Counted from the stretch's first letter, positions 28,756 to 41,105 are shown. The stretch: 64,000 bases of DNA from a virus (IMGVR_UViG_3300028394_000059:1-64000); one strand, 5' to 3'. Made by a program: numbers and translations. The notes: generated by a model from the sequence alone, not told the origin.

Positions 28756-29955
28756 ATGTGCATATTAGAAAAAATAAAATCATGGAGAGATAAAAAGGGC
28801 CAAGCATTTGGCTCCTATTTACACCAGATATCAAAAACCCAGGACGAACTGGACCAGTTAGAATCTCTAACACAATTTCTTTCAAATTTCTATGATAATA
28901 TACCTTTCCAGCAGAGGTTTTATCATGTGTGGTTTAATTTCTATGATATGGAAAAATGCCCATATTGTAACACCCCGAGAAAATTTTCAAAGGTTCCCAA
29001 ATTTTCCATAGATCGTTACGGCGAGTCTGTAACAAATTCTGTTAATTATTATGGCACCTGTATGGCTATTGAATGTCAGAAAAGATTTAATTTAGATAGA
29101 ACACAAAGTGTTCTATTAGAAAAATATGGGACAAAAAATATTATGAAAATCCCAGGTGTTCTGAATAAAATAAAAGAAACTAATAATGCTAAGTACGGTT
29201 CTGATTTTTTCATGGGAACTGAGGATTTTAAGAATCAGGTAAAAATAACATTTGATTCAAAATATAATGGGCATCCAACAAAACTAAAAGAAACACAGGA
29301 TAAGAAGAAAAAAACAAATCTGGAAAAATATGGTCACGAGCATTCGTTGGATAATGCTGATGTAAAGGAGAAGTCTAGAATTACTAATAATTTAAAGTAC
29401 GGTGGAAATTCCTCTATGTGCTCCGAGGAGACAAAGAAAAAATCCATCGAAACTAATAAAAGAAAGAGAGGCACTGACTGGTACGTTCAAAGCGATGATT
29501 TTAAGAAAAAATTTAAAGAGACCATGCTTTTAAGATATGGTGTTGAACAGGTTATGCATTATACCCCATCCTTTGAAAAGTCTATGGACACCTCATATAG
29601 AAAGAAAATATACGCATTCCCGTCGGGCAGGATTGAAAAAATACAGGGATATGAGGGATTTGCAATTAACAATCTTTTGGATTCGGGTTATCCGGAGGAT
29701 GATATTATAATATCAAATAGAGAGATAGAAAAATATACTAAAGTTATATATTATAACGATACAACAGGAAAGAGAAGAAAATATTATCCTGATGTTTATC
29801 TGAGGTCCAAAAACGTAATTATTGAGATCAAATCTAAATATACATATGAAACTAATATCGTTTTGAATAAATTAAAAAAACAGGCTTGTCTAGATTTGGA
29901 CCTCGATTTTGAATTTTGGATTTATGATAAAAAAGGTAATAAAATAATAAAATAA
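28756..29955 (+). CDS. Free-standing homing-endonuclease-like protein (Zn-ribbon, KYG repeats, PD-(D/E)XK)
   Basis: CPYC..TCMAIEC; repeated TN..KYG units; QGYE, YYPDVYL..NVIIEIKS nuclease motif; N-terminus homologous to 2086..3852. Confidence 0.75.
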   Translation: MCILEKIKSWRDKKGQAFGSYLHQISKTQDELDQLESLTQFLSNFYDNIPFQQRFYHVWFNFYDMEKCPYCNTPRKFSKVPKFSIDRYGESVTNSVNYYGTCMAIECQKRFNLDRTQSVLLEKYGTKNIMKIPGVLNKIKETNNAKYGSDFFMGTEDFKNQVKITFDSKYNGHPTKLKETQDKKKKTNLEKYGHEHSLDNADVKEKSRITNNLKYGGNSSMCSEETKKKSIETNKRKRGTDWYVQSDDFKKKFKETMLLRYGVEQVMHYTPSFEKSMDTSYRKKIYAFPSGRIEKIQGYEGFAINNLLDSGYPEDDIIISNREIEKYTKVIYYNDTTGKRRKYYPDVYLRSKNVIIEIKSKYTYETNIVLNKLKKQACLDLDLDFEFWIYDKKGNKIIK

Positions 29956-30399: not shown

Positions 30400-32124
30400 A
30401 TGAATATATTTAAGAAGAATAACATCCTGATCAACGGATTGCTAAATGACACTTTTAACTTTTTGCAATCAACTTACAGTCAGACAGCAAACGTTTTTAC
30501 CGTTGCATCTGCTTGGGGACAAATACTATTTGTGCTCCAGAATTTATCGCAACTTATCCTGTATTTTATCGAGGATTCCATCACCGAATTGAATATGCAG
30601 GAAGCCACTAGGGATTATTCAGTGCGAAGCTTAGCCAGAATCGCTGGATATGATCCTGGACGTGCGAGTGCAGCTCAGGGAGAAATAACACTATCCTGGA
30701 ATACAATACAGGGGGATGTTGGAGGTGGATCTGTTATTATAAAAAATAATTCACAAATTAGATGCCTTCAGAACGGTAAGATTTATTCATTGAGATTTGG
30801 AAGTCCAGAAGTTACGATTCCGTTAGTAAGAGGTAATGAACTAAGAGCAAAGCTAGCTCAGGGAACCTTTGAAAATGCCGTGGTAACAGGTACCGGACAA
30901 GCTTTACAAAGTTTCAATCTTCCCTCCAGTGCTGGTGCATTCCAGGATCAATTTTATATTGATGTTTATGTTAATGAGGAAAAATGGAAAAGATACGACT
31001 CAATATATGACATACCTCTAAATGGCAAGGGCTACCTTGTTAAAACCGGTATACAGGAAGGACTAGATGTTTATTTTGGTAATTCAAATTTCGGAAGGGT
31101 GCCTCAAAGGGGTGCAAGAATAAGAATCGAATATTTACAGACTAGTGGAATAAGTGGTAATGCAAATTCAACCAAGGACACTCCGTTAACATATAAATTT
31201 TCTAGTACAGGTACTGATTTATTTGGGGGTGAGATCGATCTTAATCTTTACATTGATATCAAGAATGAGATAGATCCATCATTTGGAACAAATCCGGAAA
31301 CGACAAATCTGATAAGACTAGTCGCTCCAAAAACCAGTAGATCTTTTGTTTTTGCTAATGCCCAAAATTATGAGATATTCTTAGATAAGCTTGGTATATT
31401 TTCACAGATACATGCGTTCTCAACATTTGATGATGACTATTTGGATGACGATAATGTGGTTTACCTATATTTAGTTCCTGATATAACTCTGAACCTTTCC
31501 TCGAATGAGGATTATTTTAATGTTGCTACACAAAGTTTCCTTCTTACTGTGGATCAAAAAGCTAAAGTTATTAATCTAATAGAAGGAACAGGATCTATGA
31601 TCGCAACTACGGTTATAAAGATTGTTCAACCAGTAATAACTAAATATGTTGCAAATGTTATACTTGGAATATTTGAAGGATCCGATCCTGCAACAATCAA
31701 ACAAGCAATCAGAAAGAACATCTCTGATTATATGATAGGCCTTAAAAGAAGAGACAAGATACCAAAGTCAGATTTTATTGCTATTATAGAAGGTGTATCT
31801 GGTGTTGATACTGTATCGTTTTTCTTTGTCGGCCAAAAGAACGAGGAAAATCAGACAGCTATTAAGGGATTAACTAATGTTTCACAACAACAACTGGATG
31901 AGGTTATAGGTATGGATCAATTCGGTGATATTATAATCGGAAGAAATGAATTGGTGTTGCTAAGGGGTGGATGGCAAGATAGAAATGGCACACAGTACAC
32001 AGAATCTATCATTGACGGTAAACCAGGACCACTTAATATAACTGTTGCTTCAATAGTTCCTAGAAATTACAGAAGTGATATGAGTGCGGGTCTTAAAGCA
32101 CAAATTATAAGTCAGGGATCTTAA
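30400..32124 (+). CDS. Baseplate wedge subunit, gp6-like
   Basis: SVRSLARIAGYDP.RA.AA.G, VYFGNSNFGRVP..G..IRIEYL.TSG..GN, ET..IR..AP, NYE motifs; follows the gp25-like gene. Confidence 0.85.
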   Translation: MNIFKKNNILINGLLNDTFNFLQSTYSQTANVFTVASAWGQILFVLQNLSQLILYFIEDSITELNMQEATRDYSVRSLARIAGYDPGRASAAQGEITLSWNTIQGDVGGGSVIIKNNSQIRCLQNGKIYSLRFGSPEVTIPLVRGNELRAKLAQGTFENAVVTGTGQALQSFNLPSSAGAFQDQFYIDVYVNEEKWKRYDSIYDIPLNGKGYLVKTGIQEGLDVYFGNSNFGRVPQRGARIRIEYLQTSGISGNANSTKDTPLTYKFSSTGTDLFGGEIDLNLYIDIKNEIDPSFGTNPETTNLIRLVAPKTSRSFVFANAQNYEIFLDKLGIFSQIHAFSTFDDDYLDDDNVVYLYLVPDITLNLSSNEDYFNVATQSFLLTVDQKAKVINLIEGTGSMIATTVIKIVQPVITKYVANVILGIFEGSDPATIKQAIRKNISDYMIGLKRRDKIPKSDFIAIIEGVSGVDTVSFFFVGQKNEENQTAIKGLTNVSQQQLDEVIGMDQFGDIIIGRNELVLLRGGWQDRNGTQYTESIIDGKPGPLNITVASIVPRNYRSDMSAGLKAQIISQGS

Positions 32125-32678: not shown

Positions 32679-35600
32679 ATGGCAAACGTAAGACTTAATT
32701 TTTTTAACAAGGAGGGTAATCCATTAAACTTCGATTATATCGGACCTACCGGACCAACTCCATTGGATTCTAGATTCACATACATCACATCAGTATCAGG
32801 CTCTGCCAATGCTGGTGATATACATATTGATGATCCAGTATCGCCATCAACCCAATATTCGATAGAGTTGAATATCAATGATCTTAATGGATTTGATCTA
32901 ACTGCATGGGCTAACGAAGCGACGGATTTCATATTAAAAGGTGCTGATGTGTATTTAAGCGGAGAGGTAGCAGGAGGGCAAAATTTTAGATGGAAGATAT
33001 TCTCTACATCTATAAGTAGCGGATCAGTTTATGTTGCTGTCGATGAGGATGATTACGAGGGGCAAAGAATAATAAGTCCAGGGAATCAGATATACTTTAC
33101 AACAGCCTATGATAAAAGACCAGGCGGGCATTTTAAAGGAAATATATATTTTGAACCGGTTTCTTCTGGACTGTATGAGAATGAGCAGATATTCATAGTA
33201 CAAGAATTTGATACACCATCAGGTAAGCAATATGGCGTGCCTCAGATAGGAGCAACAGGAGCAACAGGATCTCCTAAATGGAGAACAAGATGGGCCAATG
33301 ATAATTATGGGGAGACTGATGTAAGCGAAATTATATTTACGTATGCAATACAGGATGAGTTACCTGGTGGTGATGGACAGCCTTTGATAGTCAGCTATCC
33401 TAATCTTGTCATCCCTGTCATTAAAGATCCCAACTCATATTATACTAATGGGTATATCTACACAACCATCAATTCATCAGAAGCAATTGCAATAAACGTT
33501 GCTACTAATGCACCGGATGAGGCAGGGAATATCTACGAGAGAAAACTTATAGTTGAAGATATTACAACCGGTACCCCCGAAAAGGTACTGGAAGTGGATT
33601 ACTATGCTGAGATTGTTGGTGAGGATGAAAGATTCAGCGTGCTTCTTGAAAATCTTGGTCGTGCATTCTACAAGAGCGACTCCGTGATACTTAGGGATCA
33701 TGATCCAGCAGAGCCCAATGCAAACTTTTTAGAGATTAACGAGAAAAGAAAGGAGCTATTAGTTACAGGTGAGGATATATTTCCGTATATAGGAAGTTAT
33801 AAGGGTCTTATTAATGCTCTTAAGTTTTTTGGTTATCAGGATTTAAGAATAAAGGAATATTGGCTAAATCTAAACTATAAGAGTTTAAAATTAGAATCAC
33901 CATTACAACAGAATCAGACTTTTCTTAATGCAATAAAATCGGAGCAATCAAAGGGGTATAGTCAGAGCTATCAGGTTGGCGACGTTTTGAATAATGAGAA
34001 TTCTGGTAAATATAAACTAACACAAACATATGGACCTGATAATAAAGGAAATTATGTTCTTAGTGTTACTTCGGAGGATTCATTGGTACCTAGCCGGACA
34101 TATAAGAAAACATCACTATTTGGTCTCTATTACGATCTAAATAAACCTACCGATGGCATAGATGAGTTTGGTTATCCTGTTGTCGTAGATGCCTTTAAAT
34201 TCACACAAGAGGAGGTTCTAATAAAGATATTTGCTTTAAAGGAAAGGCTTAAAAGGGATTATCTTCCGCTAAATGCAAGAATAATTGATATAACTGGTGA
34301 GGGTGTATATTTTAGTATTTATAATACACGTTCTTGGACCGATGTCATGGAAAGATTTGATGTCGAATCGGGATTTTATTTTGATTTCTATCCCAATCCG
34401 GACATGGGGTTTATAGAGGATCTTAGAAATTTTTCAACAAGGAAGCTATCAACAGGTATACAGACACCAAGCTCGTATAATAATTCATATAAGACAGGTG
34501 TTGATTTTGTTGGTGGTACTGGTAGCGCTATTTCTTTCTCCAACACATTACCATATGGTGTTACTGGATATAATCCAACAATAACATTAACAGCAGGGAA
34601 TGCATACGAATTTGATGTTATTGATAGTGGTGGATATGGTTATGATTTTATAATAACTACTGACCCATCATTAACTCAAGTTGATCCTCTTGGTATATCG
34701 AATAACGGTGCAACCGGCGGGTATTCTGTTTCTTGGTATATTGAACCCGAACAAACAACTCCGGTTTATTATTACTCATCCAACAACCCGCTATTATTAA
34801 AGGGTGTTATTAATGTGCTTACCCCGACAATATCTGATCTCGGGAATATAGTGGATCCGCTGGATGTGCAGCAAAATTATAATTCTGCTCAGAATACATC
34901 CCTTTTAGAGGCTATTAAAAATTTCTATGATCTTAAACAGAATGGTGATATCATAGAACTAGGAGACGATAGATTCGATCCTGTGGCTTATATTGATCCT
35001 AATACGGGTCAACCATATCAGCTTCCAATAGGCATGCCTGTTATACTGGAATTGATATTGGATAAATGGCAATGGAACGAGCTTAATATCGATTGGAATG
35101 CTTTAATAATACCAACATTTAAGGTTGGAGATAGAGTCCAATTTAAGAATCCGGAAGCATTCTATAATGGGCTTTTTGGTACGGTTGATGCGGTAAGCTA
35201 TTCAACAGGAACATATTCTGTTATGATCGATCCACCTTATGGCTTTTCCATACCTGTAGGAGAGGCAGAATTATATTCATCTATTCAGATTTATAATCTG
35301 CTTACTTGGGACGTTATAGATTTTTCCAATATGATGGAGATCGAGTGGATCCTGAATAAATCAGCTACTCAAAACGGAACACCATATCACTTTGAATTTA
35401 GAGGCCCAATAACGGACTTTTATAAGCTGGCACACTTCTTACCTTACACTGGGAATTATCAGGTCATATGCAACATCTATGATGCTTTTAATGCTAAGAC
35501 AACAATAATTAAGAATGGTGTAATTACGGTACAACCAAAGACTGTTGATATTGATTCATGGACAAGATTTAGGGAGGTTGAGAATTATCTATGGGATAAC

Positions 35601-37469
35601 GTTGATAGAGGATGGGGAGATTATGATTCAATTTGGGAATATCCCGCAGAAGGTGAAAGTATAGAAATACTAGAGAAATCAATACCCCGAGAAATACTCG
35701 ATTTCGCAACATATGGTAATAAATCGGAGGAGGGTCAAAGCCTTTATGTTAAAGTCAATACCTCACCAATTGGTGCTACCGGGTCTATCACATTTACACA
35801 GACGGTAACCAATATATCGGAGATATATTCTCTTCAGATAGGGGGTACGGGTTCTTCCATATATGGATATGCCACTATATCCAGTGCTACCCCACATGGA
35901 TTGGTTGATGGTGACGAGGTAAATATATCCGGCACTGTATCTCAGCTTAATGGGAGATGGTTAGCTATACTCGATGGGGCAACAAATACATTTAGAATAC
36001 CAATAGCTCTAAGCTCATCATTTAATGGGATATTATTGGAGACATCACCTGTTAATAGATATGTTACGGATCCCTTGGTGTATACTAATCAGAAATTTGG
36101 TGGAGCGGGTAGCATAACTATTTACGCTGGTGGAAGATTAATAGGAAAATCAGAAACTGGTGATATCCTATATAATACTGCCAATGAAATAACATCCGCA
36201 ATAAACTCATTCAGAACATACCCTGATTATTTTGCTTCTTGTTTAAATCCTGCTGCTGATCCTGTTACTGTTACTATATCAGCACCAAATGAACTTGGAG
36301 CCGATCAGAATGGAGTGTTACTGGGATCAACATTAACGGGTTCGCTAGTAACGGTTTCTGCAGATAGCATATTGTCTAACGGTGTAAGTCCAGCTGATAC
36401 CTATGTTTACTGGTCGGAGAATGATCCAGATCAACCCAATGCAAATCTTAAGTATTGGGGAACTAAAAGATTAAACTGGGAGGTATTTAATAGTACCACA
36501 TGGGAAAATGGGTATGCACATAGTTGGTATGATTTTGAGTTTAATAATGATTGGCTGGGCGGATACGAGTTGCATACTCTTGTACCAGGAGATCATGTTA
36601 AGATCAGCACAGGAAACAGCACATATCCGTATCCTGTTGGTGTTACATTTACGAATGGTTTATCAGGTCTAACGATACAAGAAGCAGCAGACCAGCTTAA
36701 TAATTCGGATGAACCCCACATAACAAATTTCTATTATAGACCAATGCCAAGCGATGTTGGAGGTTTAAGTACCACAGCGGGAGCAGTAAATGTCACTTCT
36801 GGTAATCACCTTTTATTTAATGGTTTATTTCAACCACCACCATCATTAATTGGAGGTAGCCAGCTATTGATCCCTGGATTTGGTTATACTGGAGGTGTAC
36901 AAATAACAACGTCGACGACAACAACGACAACATCAACATCAACAACATCAACAACGACGACGACAACAATAGCACCAACAACAACAACAACATCGACGAC
37001 ATCGACGACAACAATATCACCAACAACAACAACAACAACAACGGCTGCCCCTATTTGTACATTAGCAGGAACTGCTACAATGGTATACCCAGCGACAACA
37101 ACGTCTACGACTACGACTACAACAATAAATCCTGCACTAAGTACAGTAACGATTTATTGGAGAAGAATATCGCTTGTTCTAGGCGGTGAGTACTTTGGCG
37201 TGGAGGTAGATGATGGAACTGGTAATATAATCGCTGTATTTAGTGATGATGCATTTGGTAGTACGACTCTTGTTATGCCAGTTGGTGGTATTATGGTTGC
37301 TTATATTGTTACGGGGCCAGGCTCAGTTGGCAGTTCTATAGTTATATACGACAATTATCCAACAAATAATAGTCAAGTAGCATATGCCTCTGGTAGTAGC
37401 CCTATAACAGACCCTATTACTTTAGTAGCTGGTAAAACATATTACATAGGAGCAGCTGTAGATGTGTAG
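32679..37469 (+). CDS. Very large baseplate wedge protein (gp7-like) with accessory domains and a C-terminal poly-Thr extension
   Basis: FPYIGSYKGLINALKFFGY..IKEYW wedge motif; SH3-like (FKVGDRVQF), TPHGL..GD.V.ISG and PKD-like segments; many G-x-T-G; Thr tracts. Confidence 0.6.
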   Translation: MANVRLNFFNKEGNPLNFDYIGPTGPTPLDSRFTYITSVSGSANAGDIHIDDPVSPSTQYSIELNINDLNGFDLTAWANEATDFILKGADVYLSGEVAGGQNFRWKIFSTSISSGSVYVAVDEDDYEGQRIISPGNQIYFTTAYDKRPGGHFKGNIYFEPVSSGLYENEQIFIVQEFDTPSGKQYGVPQIGATGATGSPKWRTRWANDNYGETDVSEIIFTYAIQDELPGGDGQPLIVSYPNLVIPVIKDPNSYYTNGYIYTTINSSEAIAINVATNAPDEAGNIYERKLIVEDITTGTPEKVLEVDYYAEIVGEDERFSVLLENLGRAFYKSDSVILRDHDPAEPNANFLEINEKRKELLVTGEDIFPYIGSYKGLINALKFFGYQDLRIKEYWLNLNYKSLKLESPLQQNQTFLNAIKSEQSKGYSQSYQVGDVLNNENSGKYKLTQTYGPDNKGNYVLSVTSEDSLVPSRTYKKTSLFGLYYDLNKPTDGIDEFGYPVVVDAFKFTQEEVLIKIFALKERLKRDYLPLNARIIDITGEGVYFSIYNTRSWTDVMERFDVESGFYFDFYPNPDMGFIEDLRNFSTRKLSTGIQTPSSYNNSYKTGVDFVGGTGSAISFSNTLPYGVTGYNPTITLTAGNAYEFDVIDSGGYGYDFIITTDPSLTQVDPLGISNNGATGGYSVSWYIEPEQTTPVYYYSSNNPLLLKGVINVLTPTISDLGNIVDPLDVQQNYNSAQNTSLLEAIKNFYDLKQNGDIIELGDDRFDPVAYIDPNTGQPYQLPIGMPVILELILDKWQWNELNIDWNALIIPTFKVGDRVQFKNPEAFYNGLFGTVDAVSYSTGTYSVMIDPPYGFSIPVGEAELYSSIQIYNLLTWDVIDFSNMMEIEWILNKSATQNGTPYHFEFRGPITDFYKLAHFLPYTGNYQVICNIYDAFNAKTTIIKNGVITVQPKTVDIDSWTRFREVENYLWDNVDRGWGDYDSIWEYPAEGESIEILEKSIPREILDFATYGNKSEEGQSLYVKVNTSPIGATGSITFTQTVTNISEIYSLQIGGTGSSIYGYATISSATPHGLVDGDEVNISGTVSQLNGRWLAILDGATNTFRIPIALSSSFNGILLETSPVNRYVTDPLVYTNQKFGGAGSITIYAGGRLIGKSETGDILYNTANEITSAINSFRTYPDYFASCLNPAADPVTVTISAPNELGADQNGVLLGSTLTGSLVTVSADSILSNGVSPADTYVYWSENDPDQPNANLKYWGTKRLNWEVFNSTTWENGYAHSWYDFEFNNDWLGGYELHTLVPGDHVKISTGNSTYPYPVGVTFTNGLSGLTIQEAADQLNNSDEPHITNFYYRPMPSDVGGLSTTAGAVNVTSGNHLLFNGLFQPPPSLIGGSQLLIPGFGYTGGVQITTSTTTTTTSTSTTSTTTTTTIAPTTTTTSTTSTTTISPTTTTTTTAAPICTLAGTATMVYPATTTSTTTTTTINPALSTVTIYWRRISLVLGGEYFGVEVDDGTGNIIAVFSDDAFGSTTLVMPVGGIMVAYIVTGPGSVGSSIVIYDNYPTNNSQVAYASGSSPITDPITLVAGKTYYIGAAVDV
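36906..37124 (+). repeat. (ACA/ACG)n low-complexity coding tract (mucin-like poly-Thr)
   Basis: TTSTTTTTTSTSTTSTTTTTTIAPTTTTTSTTSTTTISPTTTTTTT ... TTTSTTTTTT. Confidence 0.95.
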
Positions 37470-37515
37470 GACCTTAAGAACCTTAAGATTTAAAATGCAA
37501 TTTAATTAATAAAAA

Positions 37516-38172
37516 ATGGAAACAGCACTAATAACATTAACAACAGCGGGAGCGGACACGGGTTCTTTTAGTTTATCCTCGAATACAACCGGATTTGCAA
37601 CCACCTTTGAAAGTGGAATATCTAGAGCATCACTGCTAGCTGGATACACATCCAATTTGGTTCCTCCCGGAACAACAACAATCAGGGTTAAATCAAATTC
37701 GGTTGGTTGCAGTAATTTCGTGGATATAGTTGTTGGTGGAATAACGACCACATCCACAACAACAACAACAACATTACCACCATCCAATTCATTTCTTACT
37801 AATTATTCCATAAACGACATTACCATCAGTTTTCAATTATATGCTAAGGCTGGTAGCTCCTCTTATACCCTCTTTTATGCAACACCAGCAGCAGTAACTA
37901 TCTCGAAGGGAGGAACCTATGGATTTAGTACGTCATATCCCGCAGGTTTAGGAAGCGGGACACGTTCTTTTAAGCTTGTGATATCTGCGGGAAGCACAGG
38001 AATAGTAGCGAATGTATCAGCGTTCTATCTTAATTCAGATTTGGCCTCAACATCAGTGGTGAAATTTTCTGGTAACACTCCGGCGGCTGGGGCTTTTCAA
38101 GCTGTTAGTGTTGTAGAGGCAGGGGATAGCGTATCATTCATAGATGCATATATCACAACTACATTTGTATAA
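37516..38172 (+). CDS. Small Thr-tract protein, probably virion-associated
   Basis: N-terminal LITLTTAGADTGSF.L..SGISRASLLAGY..RVKS..GC domain, TTTSTTTTTTLPP linker, beta-rich C-terminal domain. Confidence 0.65.
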   Translation: METALITLTTAGADTGSFSLSSNTTGFATTFESGISRASLLAGYTSNLVPPGTTTIRVKSNSVGCSNFVDIVVGGITTTSTTTTTTLPPSNSFLTNYSINDITISFQLYAKAGSSSYTLFYATPAAVTISKGGTYGFSTSYPAGLGSGTRSFKLVISAGSTGIVANVSAFYLNSDLASTSVVKFSGNTPAAGAFQAVSVVEAGDSVSFIDAYITTTFV

Positions 38173-38184
38173 TTTTCATAAAGT

Positions 38185-38213
38185 GGAACAGAACGTATTA
38201 ATTTCCATATAAT
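38185..38213 (+). promoter_or_regulatory. Putative non-late promoter GGAAC-N18-TATAAT
   Basis: Exact spacing match; 20 nt upstream of ATG 38234. Confidence 0.55.
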
Positions 38214-38233
38214 AATCATAAATAAAATTAGAT

Positions 38234-39199
38234 ATGATTAATAAAAAGATGACATTTATATGTGCTCAGCCGGATGTTCCATATTTTCACTGGCAGGTTG
38301 AGGTGTTCATTCATAGTGCAATGAAATCTGGGATTAATCCAAACTGGATAGAAATCCTATTTGCGTATGACGAAACACCATCTGACGAGGGCTTAAAATT
38401 AGCTCAGAAATATCCATTTATTAGATTTTTCTTTTACCAGAAAACTGTGAGCGAAAATTATGGATATATTCCTATATTAAGACCGGACGTTCTGGAACAA
38501 CACTTCTTTAAATATCCAGAATTGTCTAACGAGATAATATTCTATCATGACTCCGATATAATATTTAGAGAGCTACCCGATTTTAATTTGCTAAATGATG
38601 ATGATTTTTGGTATCTCAGCGATACTATTTCTTATATTGGATCCGATTACATAAAAAGTAAATCTGATAAGTTACTCACCGACATGTGTAATATAGCTGG
38701 TGTTTCTAGAGAACTTGTTGAGGAAAATAATGCAAACTCTGGTGGTGCCCAATATCTTATGAAAGGCATAGATCATCTTTTCTGGAGAGATGTTAAATTC
38801 GTTTCTCTGGATCTTTATAAATATATGCTTGATGCAGAGATGGCAGAGAGACCAACATTAACAGGGGAGGAGCTAAATACATATAATCCCATTCAAAAAT
38901 GGTGTGCTGATATGTGGGCAGTGTTATGGTGTGGACTAAAGACTGGGCATCAGGTCAGGTTATCGCCTGAACTTGGATTCAGCTGGGGATCTTCATGGGG
39001 ATGTCATGAATGGAATCTTCATAAAATAATGCATAATGCTGGAGTAACCGACAACATGGGTGGAAGATGTTTCTATAAGGGAGATTATATAAACCAACTC
39101 CCTTGGGATGTGGATTTTTCTGGGATTGATCCGCAAAGTAACACATACAACTACGTACAGGCAATTCTTTATGCCAAGGTGATGCGAACACAACTATAA
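38234..39199 (+). CDS. GT-A-fold glycosyltransferase, resembling GT95/GT96 protein O-glycosyltransferases
   Basis: YFHWQ..V..HS, Y.PILRP, IFYHDSDIIF (DxD), GGAQY, WCADMWA, IMHNAG. Confidence 0.6.
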   Translation: MINKKMTFICAQPDVPYFHWQVEVFIHSAMKSGINPNWIEILFAYDETPSDEGLKLAQKYPFIRFFFYQKTVSENYGYIPILRPDVLEQHFFKYPELSNEIIFYHDSDIIFRELPDFNLLNDDDFWYLSDTISYIGSDYIKSKSDKLLTDMCNIAGVSRELVEENNANSGGAQYLMKGIDHLFWRDVKFVSLDLYKYMLDAEMAERPTLTGEELNTYNPIQKWCADMWAVLWCGLKTGHQVRLSPELGFSWGSSWGCHEWNLHKIMHNAGVTDNMGGRCFYKGDYINQLPWDVDFSGIDPQSNTYNYVQAILYAKVMRTQL

Positions 39200-39220: not shown

Positions 39221-39228
39221 GATATATA
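39221..39228 (+). promoter_or_regulatory. Putative late promoter GATATATA
   Basis: 23 nt upstream of ATG 39252. Confidence 0.65.
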
Positions 39229-39251: not shown

Positions 39252-41105
39252 ATGGCAGATATTCAGATAGGTGTAAATCAAGGAGACACAGTTTATTATT
39301 TTGATCAAAGTATAGGAAACATAGTCTCCAGGGATTGGCTTTTTATTGGTGGAACACCAACAGGTGGGACATCCTACGGACCTGCAATAAAGTACAATAG
39401 TACGAATGCATTGGGATATAATACCTCACTACTTGTTACCGATGCAGCGGGTGTTACTGGTGCAGCCAATAAAACCAATATAATTGTGGTTTATCCTGAG
39501 GTTATGACAGCACAAATTACTGCTACACCAAATTCTACCTCGATGGATGTCAACGTTATTTATCAGAGTATTGGGTTAACTGGTAGTGGATATGCTTCAT
39601 ATAATTGGTCAATACCTGGATTAGGAGCAACATCGGGTTCTTCACTGGACTCCGTTACTGGTCCCTACCCCGATTGGTATACTCTGACAGGATTATACAC
39701 TGGACTTCCTGGCTCAACATATATAGGAACTGCAACATTATCGGTAACAAGCAACGTTGGTAATAACGCTAATACAGCAACCAATGTTACATTTTATAAA
39801 TATGGACCCTACGAGGATATAAATTATAATGACAATCCATATTATCCTATAACCGGTCCTTATTACACCTGTAGTGTTTTGAGTGCCAACTCGACAGCCA
39901 TAGGTTTAGGTGGTAGTAATGTTGTTCTTAAGATAGATCAGAATGGCAGCCATTCTGGACAGATGTGGGATAACTTATATTTTCATTCAACAAATGAGTA
40001 TTGCAACTATTACCCAAACAATGATGATATACTCCAAAGCCAATACGCAGGGCAAACATTTGGGATTATTTCAACCAAGATTATATTTTCGGGAGCTTCA
40101 TTAACACTTGCTGGTGCTTCATATACACCTGATTCAAAAATAGATCTTGGAAATTATATTACCACTGGATTTATAAACACAAACCTGAACGATACATTTT
40201 ATATAACGGATTATCCGCAGGGAGGACTATTGACTGGCGCTAAAACGGGAAATAGAGAATGGTCTAATGGTGCTATAAATGAATATATGTCAAATAAATA
40301 TTATTTAACAACTTCCTCAAAATACATAGAGAACGGTGGATTTACATCAGGAAAAATTCCGAGAGTAAATCTAGCCTCCGTGGAGGCATCAGTTAATCTT
40401 GATGCGGGCTCATATAAGTTTGATGGTGGATATGGAGCGGGAGGAACAGCACACGGACCATGTGTACCTAGCTCTAAATTTTTTGATGATAAATTTGGTG
40501 TTAGTGATATAACCGTGGATGTAACAATACAAATTGCAACTGAAAATGCGGTAGCGTACAGCTTTAATGTTACGCTCTCCGATTCTGATAGTGCTGGTAA
40601 TACGCCGGATGTTTGGCTTATTACCGCACAGGATACCGCTTATGGAACTGGTACAGGATTGGTTTCTATATTTAACACGGCTTTAGGATTAATAGGTAGT
40701 ACTAATAAATTATCCGATTTTATTGGATTTGAACAGTCCCCGTATTTTGCTGCCTACGAAAACGGTGGTGCTTCAAATAATGCAGCAAAACAATATGACG
40801 CTGCAAATTTTCCGGGCATCAGGTTTTATGTTAAAGACCCTGCAGTTGAAAATACAGGAACAGTTTTAGATTCAGAGAATATAGCATCTGTTAGTATTAG
40901 TTGGGGACCCGGCTGGGCGGCTGGTGTTGAGGGACAAGGTTACTTTACTAGTGACAGAAAATTAACATCAGTATTAGGATCTTTTAAGAGTGATATTGCT
41001 TCCTGGATTTCCTGGCTCGGATTCAAGTCAAATTGTGGACTTCCTTCTTCTTTTGTAACGAAGGCTAATTATTTAAGAGGGTGGAGAATAGGCGGATCCG
41101 TATAA
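39252..41105 (+). CDS. Virion protein with N-terminal PKD-like domains
   Basis: GDTVYYFDQS.GNIVSRDWLF.GGTP...P.IKY...Y...L.VTD..G pattern, then YNWS. Confidence 0.6.
   Translation: MADIQIGVNQGDTVYYFDQSIGNIVSRDWLFIGGTPTGGTSYGPAIKYNSTNALGYNTSLLVTDAAGVTGAANKTNIIVVYPEVMTAQITATPNSTSMDVNVIYQSIGLTGSGYASYNWSIPGLGATSGSSLDSVTGPYPDWYTLTGLYTGLPGSTYIGTATLSVTSNVGNNANTATNVTFYKYGPYEDINYNDNPYYPITGPYYTCSVLSANSTAIGLGGSNVVLKIDQNGSHSGQMWDNLYFHSTNEYCNYYPNNDDILQSQYAGQTFGIISTKIIFSGASLTLAGASYTPDSKIDLGNYITTGFINTNLNDTFYITDYPQGGLLTGAKTGNREWSNGAINEYMSNKYYLTTSSKYIENGGFTSGKIPRVNLASVEASVNLDAGSYKFDGGYGAGGTAHGPCVPSSKFFDDKFGVSDITVDVTIQIATENAVAYSFNVTLSDSDSAGNTPDVWLITAQDTAYGTGTGLVSIFNTALGLIGSTNKLSDFIGFEQSPYFAAYENGGASNNAAKQYDAANFPGIRFYVKDPAVENTGTVLDSENIASVSISWGPGWAAGVEGQGYFTSDRKLTSVLGSFKSDIASWISWLGFKSNCGLPSSFVTKANYLRGWRIGGSV

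Follow-up and report, generated by a model that had tools for sequence, protein, structure and literature searches.

A GT-A glycosyltransferase gene beside poly-threonine linkers in phage virion proteins: a candidate O-glycosylation cassette

The locus and its transcription unit

The window analysed here is the initial 64 kb (64,000 nucleotides, nt) of an 86.8-kb viral contig in IMG/VR (IMGVR_UViG_3300028394_000059). Within a long plus-strand run of late structural genes it encodes a predicted glycosyltransferase (GT) of family phrog_4417, preceded by two open reading frames (ORFs) whose products contain poly-threonine (poly-Thr) tracts (Table 1). A six-frame scan for windows of 12 amino acids (aa) with at least eight Thr returned three tracts in the window and likewise three in the full record, all of those in the window lying no more than 1.4 kb upstream of the GT ORF. 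Two fall in a 1596-aa baseplate-module protein and the third in a 218-aa protein, ORF218. The original prediction, made from the window alone, had described Thr/Ser tracts in the large protein and in the next ORF, followed by a GT-A gene with a DxD motif, and scans, motifs and predicted fold confirm this arrangement. It had also held that the large protein ends in its tracts. This is not so: a 111-aa domain lies behind them, making the tracts inter-domain linkers rather than the end of the protein. A blastp comparison with 62 distal domains of other loci found no relative of this domain.

The large protein had been called gp7-like. As a statement about gene order the name holds, as the gene comes after a phrog_219 baseplate-wedge gene, and gene order is all that it conveys: the protein has no match among sequences of solved structures (PDB), and its sole PHROG match is phrog_28177, of unknown function. 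The second carrier, ORF218, has a C-terminal domain of about 130 aa behind its linker, and its orthologues keep the N-terminal domain and the linker while the C-terminal module is exchanged. In a 373-kb phage (locus L171, 12816-14012) the orthologue is 399 aa long and its C-terminal part looks Hint/intein-like by eye (C...TLI...THNHVV...). In another relative (L167, 12825-13391) an extra 189-aa ORF separates the gene of the large protein from the ORF218 orthologue; its product, judged by eye, resembles an S-adenosylmethionine (SAM)-dependent methyltransferase or spermidine synthase, and it could modify the glycan.

Is the GT transcribed together with its proposed substrates? A putative late motif, GATATATA, occurs 13 times between window positions 2055 and 62225, all of them on the plus strand and most of them a short way upstream of an ORF. 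The number of copies does not exceed chance (11 of 100 shuffles give 13 or more); the bias in strand and position fits a late-promoter role. No copy lies between 29994 and 39221, so that a late baseplate operon, which encodes the proposed substrates, would seem to end with the GT, and the copy at 39221 likely marks the end of this transcription unit and a new start before the next gene. A separate, non-late promoter at 38185, which had been proposed for the GT, finds no backing: its motif, GTGGAACAGAAC, does not recur beyond expectation when up to two mismatches are allowed (7 matches against 3.8 expected, a number equalled by 10 of 100 shuffles), sigma-70-like sites show no excess (38 against 41.8 expected), and the gene looks like part of the late operon.

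The contig has a CheckV completeness of 29%, and contigs with orthologues span 250-434 kb, which identifies the source as a jumbo-type tailed phage. A megablast search against GenBank phages found no DNA-level relatives. Amid the baseplate genes, a 399-aa ORF (28756-29955) matches homing-endonuclease PHROGs (phrog_3339, E=2e-20).

Table 1. Features of the cassette and its surroundings in the window
Feature	Position	Strand	Description or basis
phrog_219 baseplate-wedge gene	30400-32124		Precedes the 1596-aa ORF
1596-aa baseplate-module protein	32679..37469	+	Conserved core to ~aa 1406, two poly-Thr linkers, 111-aa C-terminal domain
Poly-Thr/Ser tract 1, proposed O-glycosylation acceptor	36897..37046	+	aa 1407-1456 of the 1596-aa protein; tract scans
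Poly-Thr tract 2	37086..37133	+	aa 1470-1485 of the 1596-aa protein; tract scans
111-aa distal domain behind the tracts	37134..37466	+	Translation
218-aa protein (ORF218)	37516..38172	+	Conserved ~75-aa N-terminal domain, poly-Thr linker, variable C-terminal domain
Poly-Thr linker GGITTTSTTTTTTLPP of ORF218	37735..37782	+	aa 74-89; tract scans
321-aa predicted GT-A glycosyltransferase, family phrog_4417	38234..39199	+	phrog_4417, E=6e-63 (function unknown)
D106-S107-D108 codons, DxD metal/nucleotide-sugar motif	38549..38557	+	Alignments
GATATATA copy	39221..39228	+	Ahead of the next gene (39252); first after 29994
Next gene after the GT	39252-41105		

The glycosyltransferase family and its fold

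The GT translation contains all four motifs quoted in the original prediction (YFHWQ, YIPILRP, FYHDSD and WCADMW), and neither aspartate of FYHDSD (D106, D108) varies in any of three alignments, which comprise 48, 148 and 112 sequences. Further residues (W20, Y78, Y134, G171, M227, F249, H267, F280 and K282) are invariant or nearly so in alignments of homologues. Pfam and NCBIfam scans gave no match to the protein. The family is nonetheless large, with 1802 proteins at E<=0.001 in a database clustered at 90% and 823 representative homologues at 50% clustering. An AlphaFold model built on the 48-sequence alignment reached a pLDDT of 96.8 and a pTM of 0.93, and Foldseek matched it to 219 PDB entries at E<=0.001. 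Those listed at the top are all GT-A enzymes, namely WbbM, UGGT (GT24), the three GT8 enzymes LgtC, XXYLT1 and LARGE1, the GT6 enzymes alpha-1,3-GalT and GTA/GTB, and AgtA (GT77), with E values of 1e-7 to 1e-5, TM scores of 0.4-0.5 and 8-14% identity. Among viral models (BFVD) the nearest is a near-identical protein of an uncultured phage (61% identity, TM 0.97), followed by Orf49 of Lactobacillus phage LP65 (TM 0.71) and then by GT8-like giant-virus proteins; the matches are mostly viral proteins named glycosyltransferase, GT8 included. The model thus predicts, with high confidence in the fold, a DxD GT-A glycosyltransferase. The top PDB matches belong to retaining GT-A families, and only these structural neighbours suggest retaining (alpha) stereochemistry.

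The protein begins with MINKKMTFICAQPD and the first strand of the model starts at residue 6, leaving no N-terminal hydrophobic helix, so the enzyme is predicted to be soluble and should act in the host cytoplasm. In longer homologues the GT domain is N-terminal and is followed by other GT domains, by a methyltransferase or by a radical-SAM/SPASM domain. The fusion partners (Glyco_transf_7C, GT6, GT2, GT25, Gly_transf_sug and methyltransferase) are typical of glycan building.

Motif order had led to the proposal that the enzyme is akin to plant and algal hydroxyproline O-arabinosyltransferases (HPAT, GT95) and peptidyl-serine galactosyltransferases (GT96). GT95 membership is not supported by the HPAT profile, PF23452, which matched none of 112 family representatives at E<=0.01 (one of 48 at E=0.23), nothing on the window record, nothing at the GT gene in 49 viral records and none of 301 Bacteroidota genomes, and gave nothing usable in five bacterial genomes. 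Of the expected structural outcome, then, the GT-A fold was borne out, with retaining GT8, GT24, GT6 and GT77 enzymes nearest, and kinship to HPAT was not. An ESM Atlas feature search did rank clusters that carry HPAT closest among those with a name (22 of 30 named hits, scores 0.96-0.97); HPAT is borne by 58% of the members in a bacterial cluster and by 10% in a viral one. This neighbourhood is a lead that comes without alignment or E-value, and the protein-language-model search alone points to GT95. The plant GT95/96 label is not confirmed and should be dropped until a profile-profile test. Likeness to GT8 is one of fold only, as Pfam GT8 (PF01501) matched none of five related phage genomes (three with the GT, two without) and none of the 112 members.

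Two other candidate affinities were set aside. DUF7164 (PF23741), suggested by the Atlas, matched 0 of 48 and 0 of 112 members and 0 of 10 proteins scanned. A profile search of PDB sequences with the GT family gave TALE-repeat proteins only, through a 31-residue stretch at GT residues ~139-169 (window ~38648-38740) that ends in NSGGAQY where the TALE repeat has NSGGKQAL; it was judged a repeat-amplified chance match, because such scores sum many weak repeats.

Linkage, joint gain and joint loss of glycosyltransferase and tracts

Tracts were mapped around the best 80 of 594 confirmed GT-homologue loci in IMG/VR. Under a strict rule (a 12-aa window with at least eight Thr and at least ten Ser plus Thr), a same-strand tract lies no more than 2 kb upstream of the GT in 56 of the 73 loci whose upstream DNA reaches that far, whereas the 2 kb downstream hold one in 1 of 72; further than 3 kb from the GT, any one per-kilobase bin has a tract in 0-9% of loci. 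Among the 17 loci that are negative under this rule, most have tracts close to the threshold, a poly-Ser ORF (L046) or a tract immediately downstream (L047). Under a looser rule, 69 of the 80 loci have a same-strand tract-bearing ORF ending no more than 2.5 kb upstream, and in 65 of these 69 the ORF stops no more than 150 nt from the GT start, at a median gap of 34 nt. This tight and directional adjacency is genuine and far exceeds chance. When the GTs are grouped by single linkage at 60% identity, the 80 loci reduce to 16 clusters, of which 11 of the 14 informative ones are tract-positive.

The tract is an internal linker in 65 of the 69 upstream carriers and a C-terminal tail in four. What else could these carriers share? 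The distal domains behind the tracts fall into 40 blastp clusters among 62, which rules out a conserved docking domain, and since these domains are mutually unrelated the tract is the sole shared feature. Many carriers from aquatic phages (L050-L085) have small Cys-rich modules of about 66 aa (the C-terminal 65-72 aa) behind the last tract, and several of their tracts have a Cys just ahead. In L015-L017 (13126-20949) and L014 (7413-8024) the region some 2 kb downstream of the GT holds a giant ORF of 2608 aa, with 35% Ser and SGT-type repeats.

The family also extends to named phages. By tblastn it is present, at 31-42% identity, in 77 GenBank phage records, from phages that infect Lactobacillus, Enterococcus, Staphylococcus, Lactococcus, Clostridium, Chryseobacterium and others. 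Nine of these were inspected, picked for diversity and hence non-random, and all nine have poly-Thr on structural proteins at or near the GT. In phiFL1A the tract is on the major tail protein directly upstream of the GT, in Semele and iLp84 on small structural proteins annotated as 'major tail protein', in the Chryseobacterium phage MA9V-3 on a 429-aa protein and in phiCTP1 on the tail-tube protein. CHPC836 has tracts on its capsid and major tail proteins, and R3.3 has two carriers, an unannotated protein encoded directly upstream of the GT and a second one encoded downstream. Vipetofem has tracts on the major tail protein and on an ORF that overlaps the end of the capsid gene, and PT1-4 has them on two overlapping ORFs. 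The family thus sits in late structural operons, phage-encoded, beside carriers annotated as capsid, tail-tube and major tail proteins. The co-occurrence of GT and poly-Thr ORFs that had been predicted therefore holds in both samples.

In two of these phages the reading frames themselves are unusual. In the Enterococcus phage vipetofem (L277, 3671-3826) the poly-Thr ORF and the 3' end of the major head gene overlap in different frames, at a site where the record annotates an opposite-strand gene. In the Staphylococcus phage PT1-4 (L278, 2469-3017 and 2956-3207) the poly-Thr ORF overlaps the 3' end of an upstream ORF, again in a different frame. A programmed frameshift could in both cases put a poly-Thr tail on some of the subunits.

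With the core of the large protein (aa 1-1407) as query, 31 orthologue loci were compared. In 16 of them the ORF extends by 156-238 aa with poly-Thr, and all 16 have the ORF218 orthologue and the GT. In ten the ORF ends 4-36 aa past the aligned core, and all ten lack tract, ORF218 and GT, as had been predicted of GT-less orthologues. Among the rest, two with the extension end before a GT could appear and three run off the contig; ORF218 is found in this set solely where the GT is present. A search of the ten GT-less whole records returned no member of the GT family, while the same search found one copy in each of the five GT-bearing records used as a positive control. The Thr extension, ORF218 and the GT form a single unit of about 2.3 kb whose boundary falls exactly after the conserved core. 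In five GT-less relatives (L173, L174, L186, L187 and L190) the orthologue of the next gene begins 33-92 nt after the stop, which makes the cassette a clean indel of about 2.3 kb; the other five GT-less relatives have no match to the window's next gene. The idea that the cassette moves as a unit is borne out by this presence and absence at one point. Mapped on a tree of the core, the trait requires three changes, of which well-supported branches force two or more.

The ten GT-less loci contain no tract in 193 kb, against 47 tracts in the 307 kb of the 16 GT-bearing loci. GT and tracts are adjacent, so that their joint loss could be one deletion, and whole genomes were compared for this reason. 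Two GT-less genomes, G355 (250 kb, 92% complete) and G356 (290 kb, 100%), have no tract and no run of five or more Thr among ORFs of at least 100 aa. The near-complete GT-bearing genomes G367, G368 and G365 (with lengths of 271, 319 and 373 kb among them) have five, three and four tracts, some on proteins encoded 100-230 kb from the GT. In one such remote carrier (G367, 188058-189209) poly-Thr links an N-terminal to a C-terminal domain; GT-less G355 encodes an orthologue that has this pair of domains but connects them by a short linker, GPSIV, instead. Joint gain and loss is thus seen at unlinked loci as well. In this small sample the unlinked tracts alone argue against a single deletion, and they change in the direction that a substrate-enzyme relation predicts. 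Together, these observations make a functional coupling of the GT family with poly-Thr linkers in virion proteins well supported.

Chromosomal relatives place the family in a second setting. A sample of 80 loci from prokaryotic genomes (L086-L165) comprises 32 unfused copies and 48 copies of at least 450 aa. The unfused copies come from Bacillota (several with structural-gene neighbours, which suggests prophages), from Bacteroidota and from metagenome-assembled genomes of other phyla; in 18 of the 32 a tract lies upstream and often stops 4-80 nt short of the GT, and two have peptide-cluster neighbours. The long copies (~450-830 aa) come from Chitinophaga, Pedobacter, Mucilaginibacter, Sphingobacterium and relatives, all Bacteroidota, and are mostly fused to a Glyco_transf_7C-like second domain, as in L095 and P0132/P0136. 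For 42 of these 48, a gene for a C39-peptidase ABC exporter, a LanC-like protein or a radical-SAM enzyme is found no more than 6 kb away, which ties the family to peptide or protein substrates in a second, independent context. The two clusters that were read encode precursors of 170 and 232 aa with a double-glycine (GG) leader and a Ser/Thr-rich body. The clusters in L090, L093, L095, L105, L113 and others look like an undescribed class of glycosylated bacteriocin-like proteins.

Proposed mechanism and known systems

These results can be joined in a mechanism. The GT would be a soluble, cytoplasmic, metal-dependent (DxD) GT-A enzyme, probably using a host NDP-sugar as donor, that O-glycosylates Thr residues of poly-Thr linkers in virion proteins made from the same late operon. 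In the window its targets would be the 1596-aa protein and ORF218, and in relatives also linker-bearing proteins encoded elsewhere in the genome. Dense O-glycosylation would turn the linker into a stiff, protease-resistant, hydrophilic, mucin-like stalk that keeps the variable distal domain away from the particle. We consider this account as a whole quite probable and, at about the same level, direct O-glycosylation of Thr by this GT the most likely mechanism. We infer that Thr is the acceptor; that the GT would initiate the glycan rather than extend it, and that the linker would serve as a physical stalk, are readings of the same kind.

Several observations weigh against this account. About 11 of the 80 IMG/VR loci have no upstream tract, and four of them (L037, L045, L080 and L082) have none within 10 kb; these four and L059 seem truly tract-less, while L064 and L069 have weak Thr- or Thr/Pro-rich stretches. 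In L046 (8877-9215) a 113-aa ORF with 52% Ser has a long poly-Ser run that replaces poly-Thr upstream of the GT. A poly-Thr tract is near only 1 of the 48 long Bacteroidota copies, so that poly-Thr is not a universal acceptor of the family. Joint loss in the large protein could be a single deletion of no functional meaning, and the evidence from unlinked tracts comes from two GT-less and three GT-bearing genomes of one phage clade. A literature search, in which subscription journals were thinly covered, returned no biochemical or mass-spectrometric evidence for any family member, nor any paper on the phrog_4417 family, DUF7164, PF23452 or a phage poly-Thr/GT cassette. Finally, the close structural neighbours all use a glycan or a lipid-linked acceptor, none of them passing sugar directly to a peptide.

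Could the GT then extend a sugar that another enzyme has placed? In this alternative a host enzyme or another phage enzyme would add the first sugar to Thr, within the same pathway. LgtC, UGGT, XXYLT1, LARGE1, alpha3GalT and AgtA, all close structural neighbours, use sugar acceptors, and GT2-family genes, present in GT-bearing and GT-less relatives alike, could supply the other steps. However, in most loci the phrog_4417 protein is the only GT beside the tracts, and in the fused forms its domain is N-terminal with the second GT behind, the order expected of an initiator followed by an extender. GT-less relatives keep their GT2 genes and yet have no tracts, so that the tracts depend on the phrog_4417 family in particular. 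An extending role is accordingly unlikely.

A non-protein target is less likely still. The GT would then act on phage DNA, host envelope polysaccharide or teichoic acid and merely travel with Thr-linker genes in a mobile structural module. Phage GTs are best known for DNA glucosylation and serotype conversion (PMC12619734), and physical linkage makes joint gain and loss of GT and tracts partly expected. Against this target, the adjacency recurs with unrelated carriers (capsid, tail tube, the small structural 'major tail protein' and the baseplate-module protein) and across Bacillota phages, the Chryseobacterium phage MA9V-3 and uncultured jumbo phages, and unlinked tracts follow the GT genome-wide. 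The gene also lies inside late structural operons, away from replication and integration genes, and its second genomic context is that of peptide-bacteriocin clusters. These points leave a non-protein target decidedly improbable. That the tracts are plain, unmodified flexible linkers whose association with the GT reflects shared ancestry of the sampled phages is the least credible of the alternatives: Thr-rich linkers are common in proteins with no known modification and many of the sampled loci are closely related (80 loci, 16 GT clusters), but 11 of 14 dereplicated clusters are still positive, the association spans very distant phage groups with at least two independent changes in presence or absence, and 540 kb of GT-less genomes hold no tract.

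If poly-Thr linkers are glycosylated by the phrog_4417 enzyme, a broader picture follows, in which a phage 'mucin' system, widespread yet hitherto unrecognised, would form glycosylated stalks or tails on baseplates, tail tubes and capsids. The family occurs in jumbo aquatic phages, a Chryseobacterium phage (host phylum Bacteroidota) and phages of clostridia, staphylococci, enterococci and lactic acid bacteria; the fused sister branch would glycosylate GG-leader bacteriocin-like proteins in Bacteroidota; and the family may be a prokaryotic and viral cousin of plant GT95. Taken jointly, these parts earn only slightly more credence than doubt. Virion glycosylation by phage enzymes has so far been shown only in mycobacteriophages, as far as the literature searched goes. 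The cassette would add a different enzyme family with a simple acceptor that can be read from sequence, present in hundreds of phage lineages, among them dairy, gut, enterococcal and staphylococcal phages used or considered for therapy. Glycosylated phage proteins would become predictable from a poly-Thr tract together with a phrog_4417 GT. Glycosylation of the tracts would account for a low-complexity feature that is common in phage structural proteins, matter for immune recognition and mucus adherence as well as for phage stability and adsorption, and give a name to a large family of 'hypothetical proteins'. For Bacteroidota, the sister branch would suggest bacteriocin-like proteins of a new, glycosylated class.

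How does the cassette compare with known systems? The retaining GT-A enzymes of GT8, GT24, GT6 and GT77 are its best structural matches and share the DxD motif; the phage GT also has a conserved histidine, H267, which may be a metal ligand as in GT8 enzymes. The match is nevertheless at a TM of just 0.4-0.5 and 8-14% identity, and known members use glycan acceptors. GT95 and GT96 enzymes are, like the phage GT, DxD glycosyltransferases, and they act on repetitive, extended protein tracts. GT95 enzymes have the type II membrane anchor of a secretory-pathway enzyme, whereas the phage GT has no membrane anchor, and the plant enzymes use hydroxyproline or Ser as acceptor where the phage GT would use Thr.

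Mycobacteriophage virion glycosylation, which Freeman and colleagues reportedly described in 2023, is the closest known phenomenon. GTs of mycobacteriophages (Che8 gp108-110, Corndog gp38, Myrna) glycosylate the phages' own virions, modifying the C-termini of capsid and tail-tube subunits and shielding particles from antibodies (PMC12363180, PMC12619734), and four glycosyltransferase groups occur in one jumbo-phage lineage (PMC12619734). The Gram-positive phages considered here resemble this system in that their tracts also lie at capsid and tail-tube C-termini. The enzymes differ, however: Che8 gp108-110 are of GT2/GT25 type by Pfam, with a methyltransferase, unlike phrog_4417, and gp110 has no profile similarity to the GT family (hhalign probability 0.1%). 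The Che8 GT genes lie at the far end of the genome, the phrog_4417 GT beside its proposed substrates, and poly-Thr tracts are absent from the capsid and tail-tube proteins of Che8. The organism names listed for the 77 tblastn hits include no Mycobacterium phage.

Mucin-type (ppGalNAc-T) and serine-rich-repeat adhesin (GtfA/B) systems offer a parallel in the way they work. In both, dense O-glycosylation of low-complexity Ser/Thr tracts produces extended stalks, and in serine-rich-repeat systems dedicated cytoplasmic GTs are encoded beside the substrate gene. Their enzymes belong to families unrelated to the phage GT, and the substrates proposed for the phage cassette differ from theirs in being proteins of the virus particle, reached with no secretion step.

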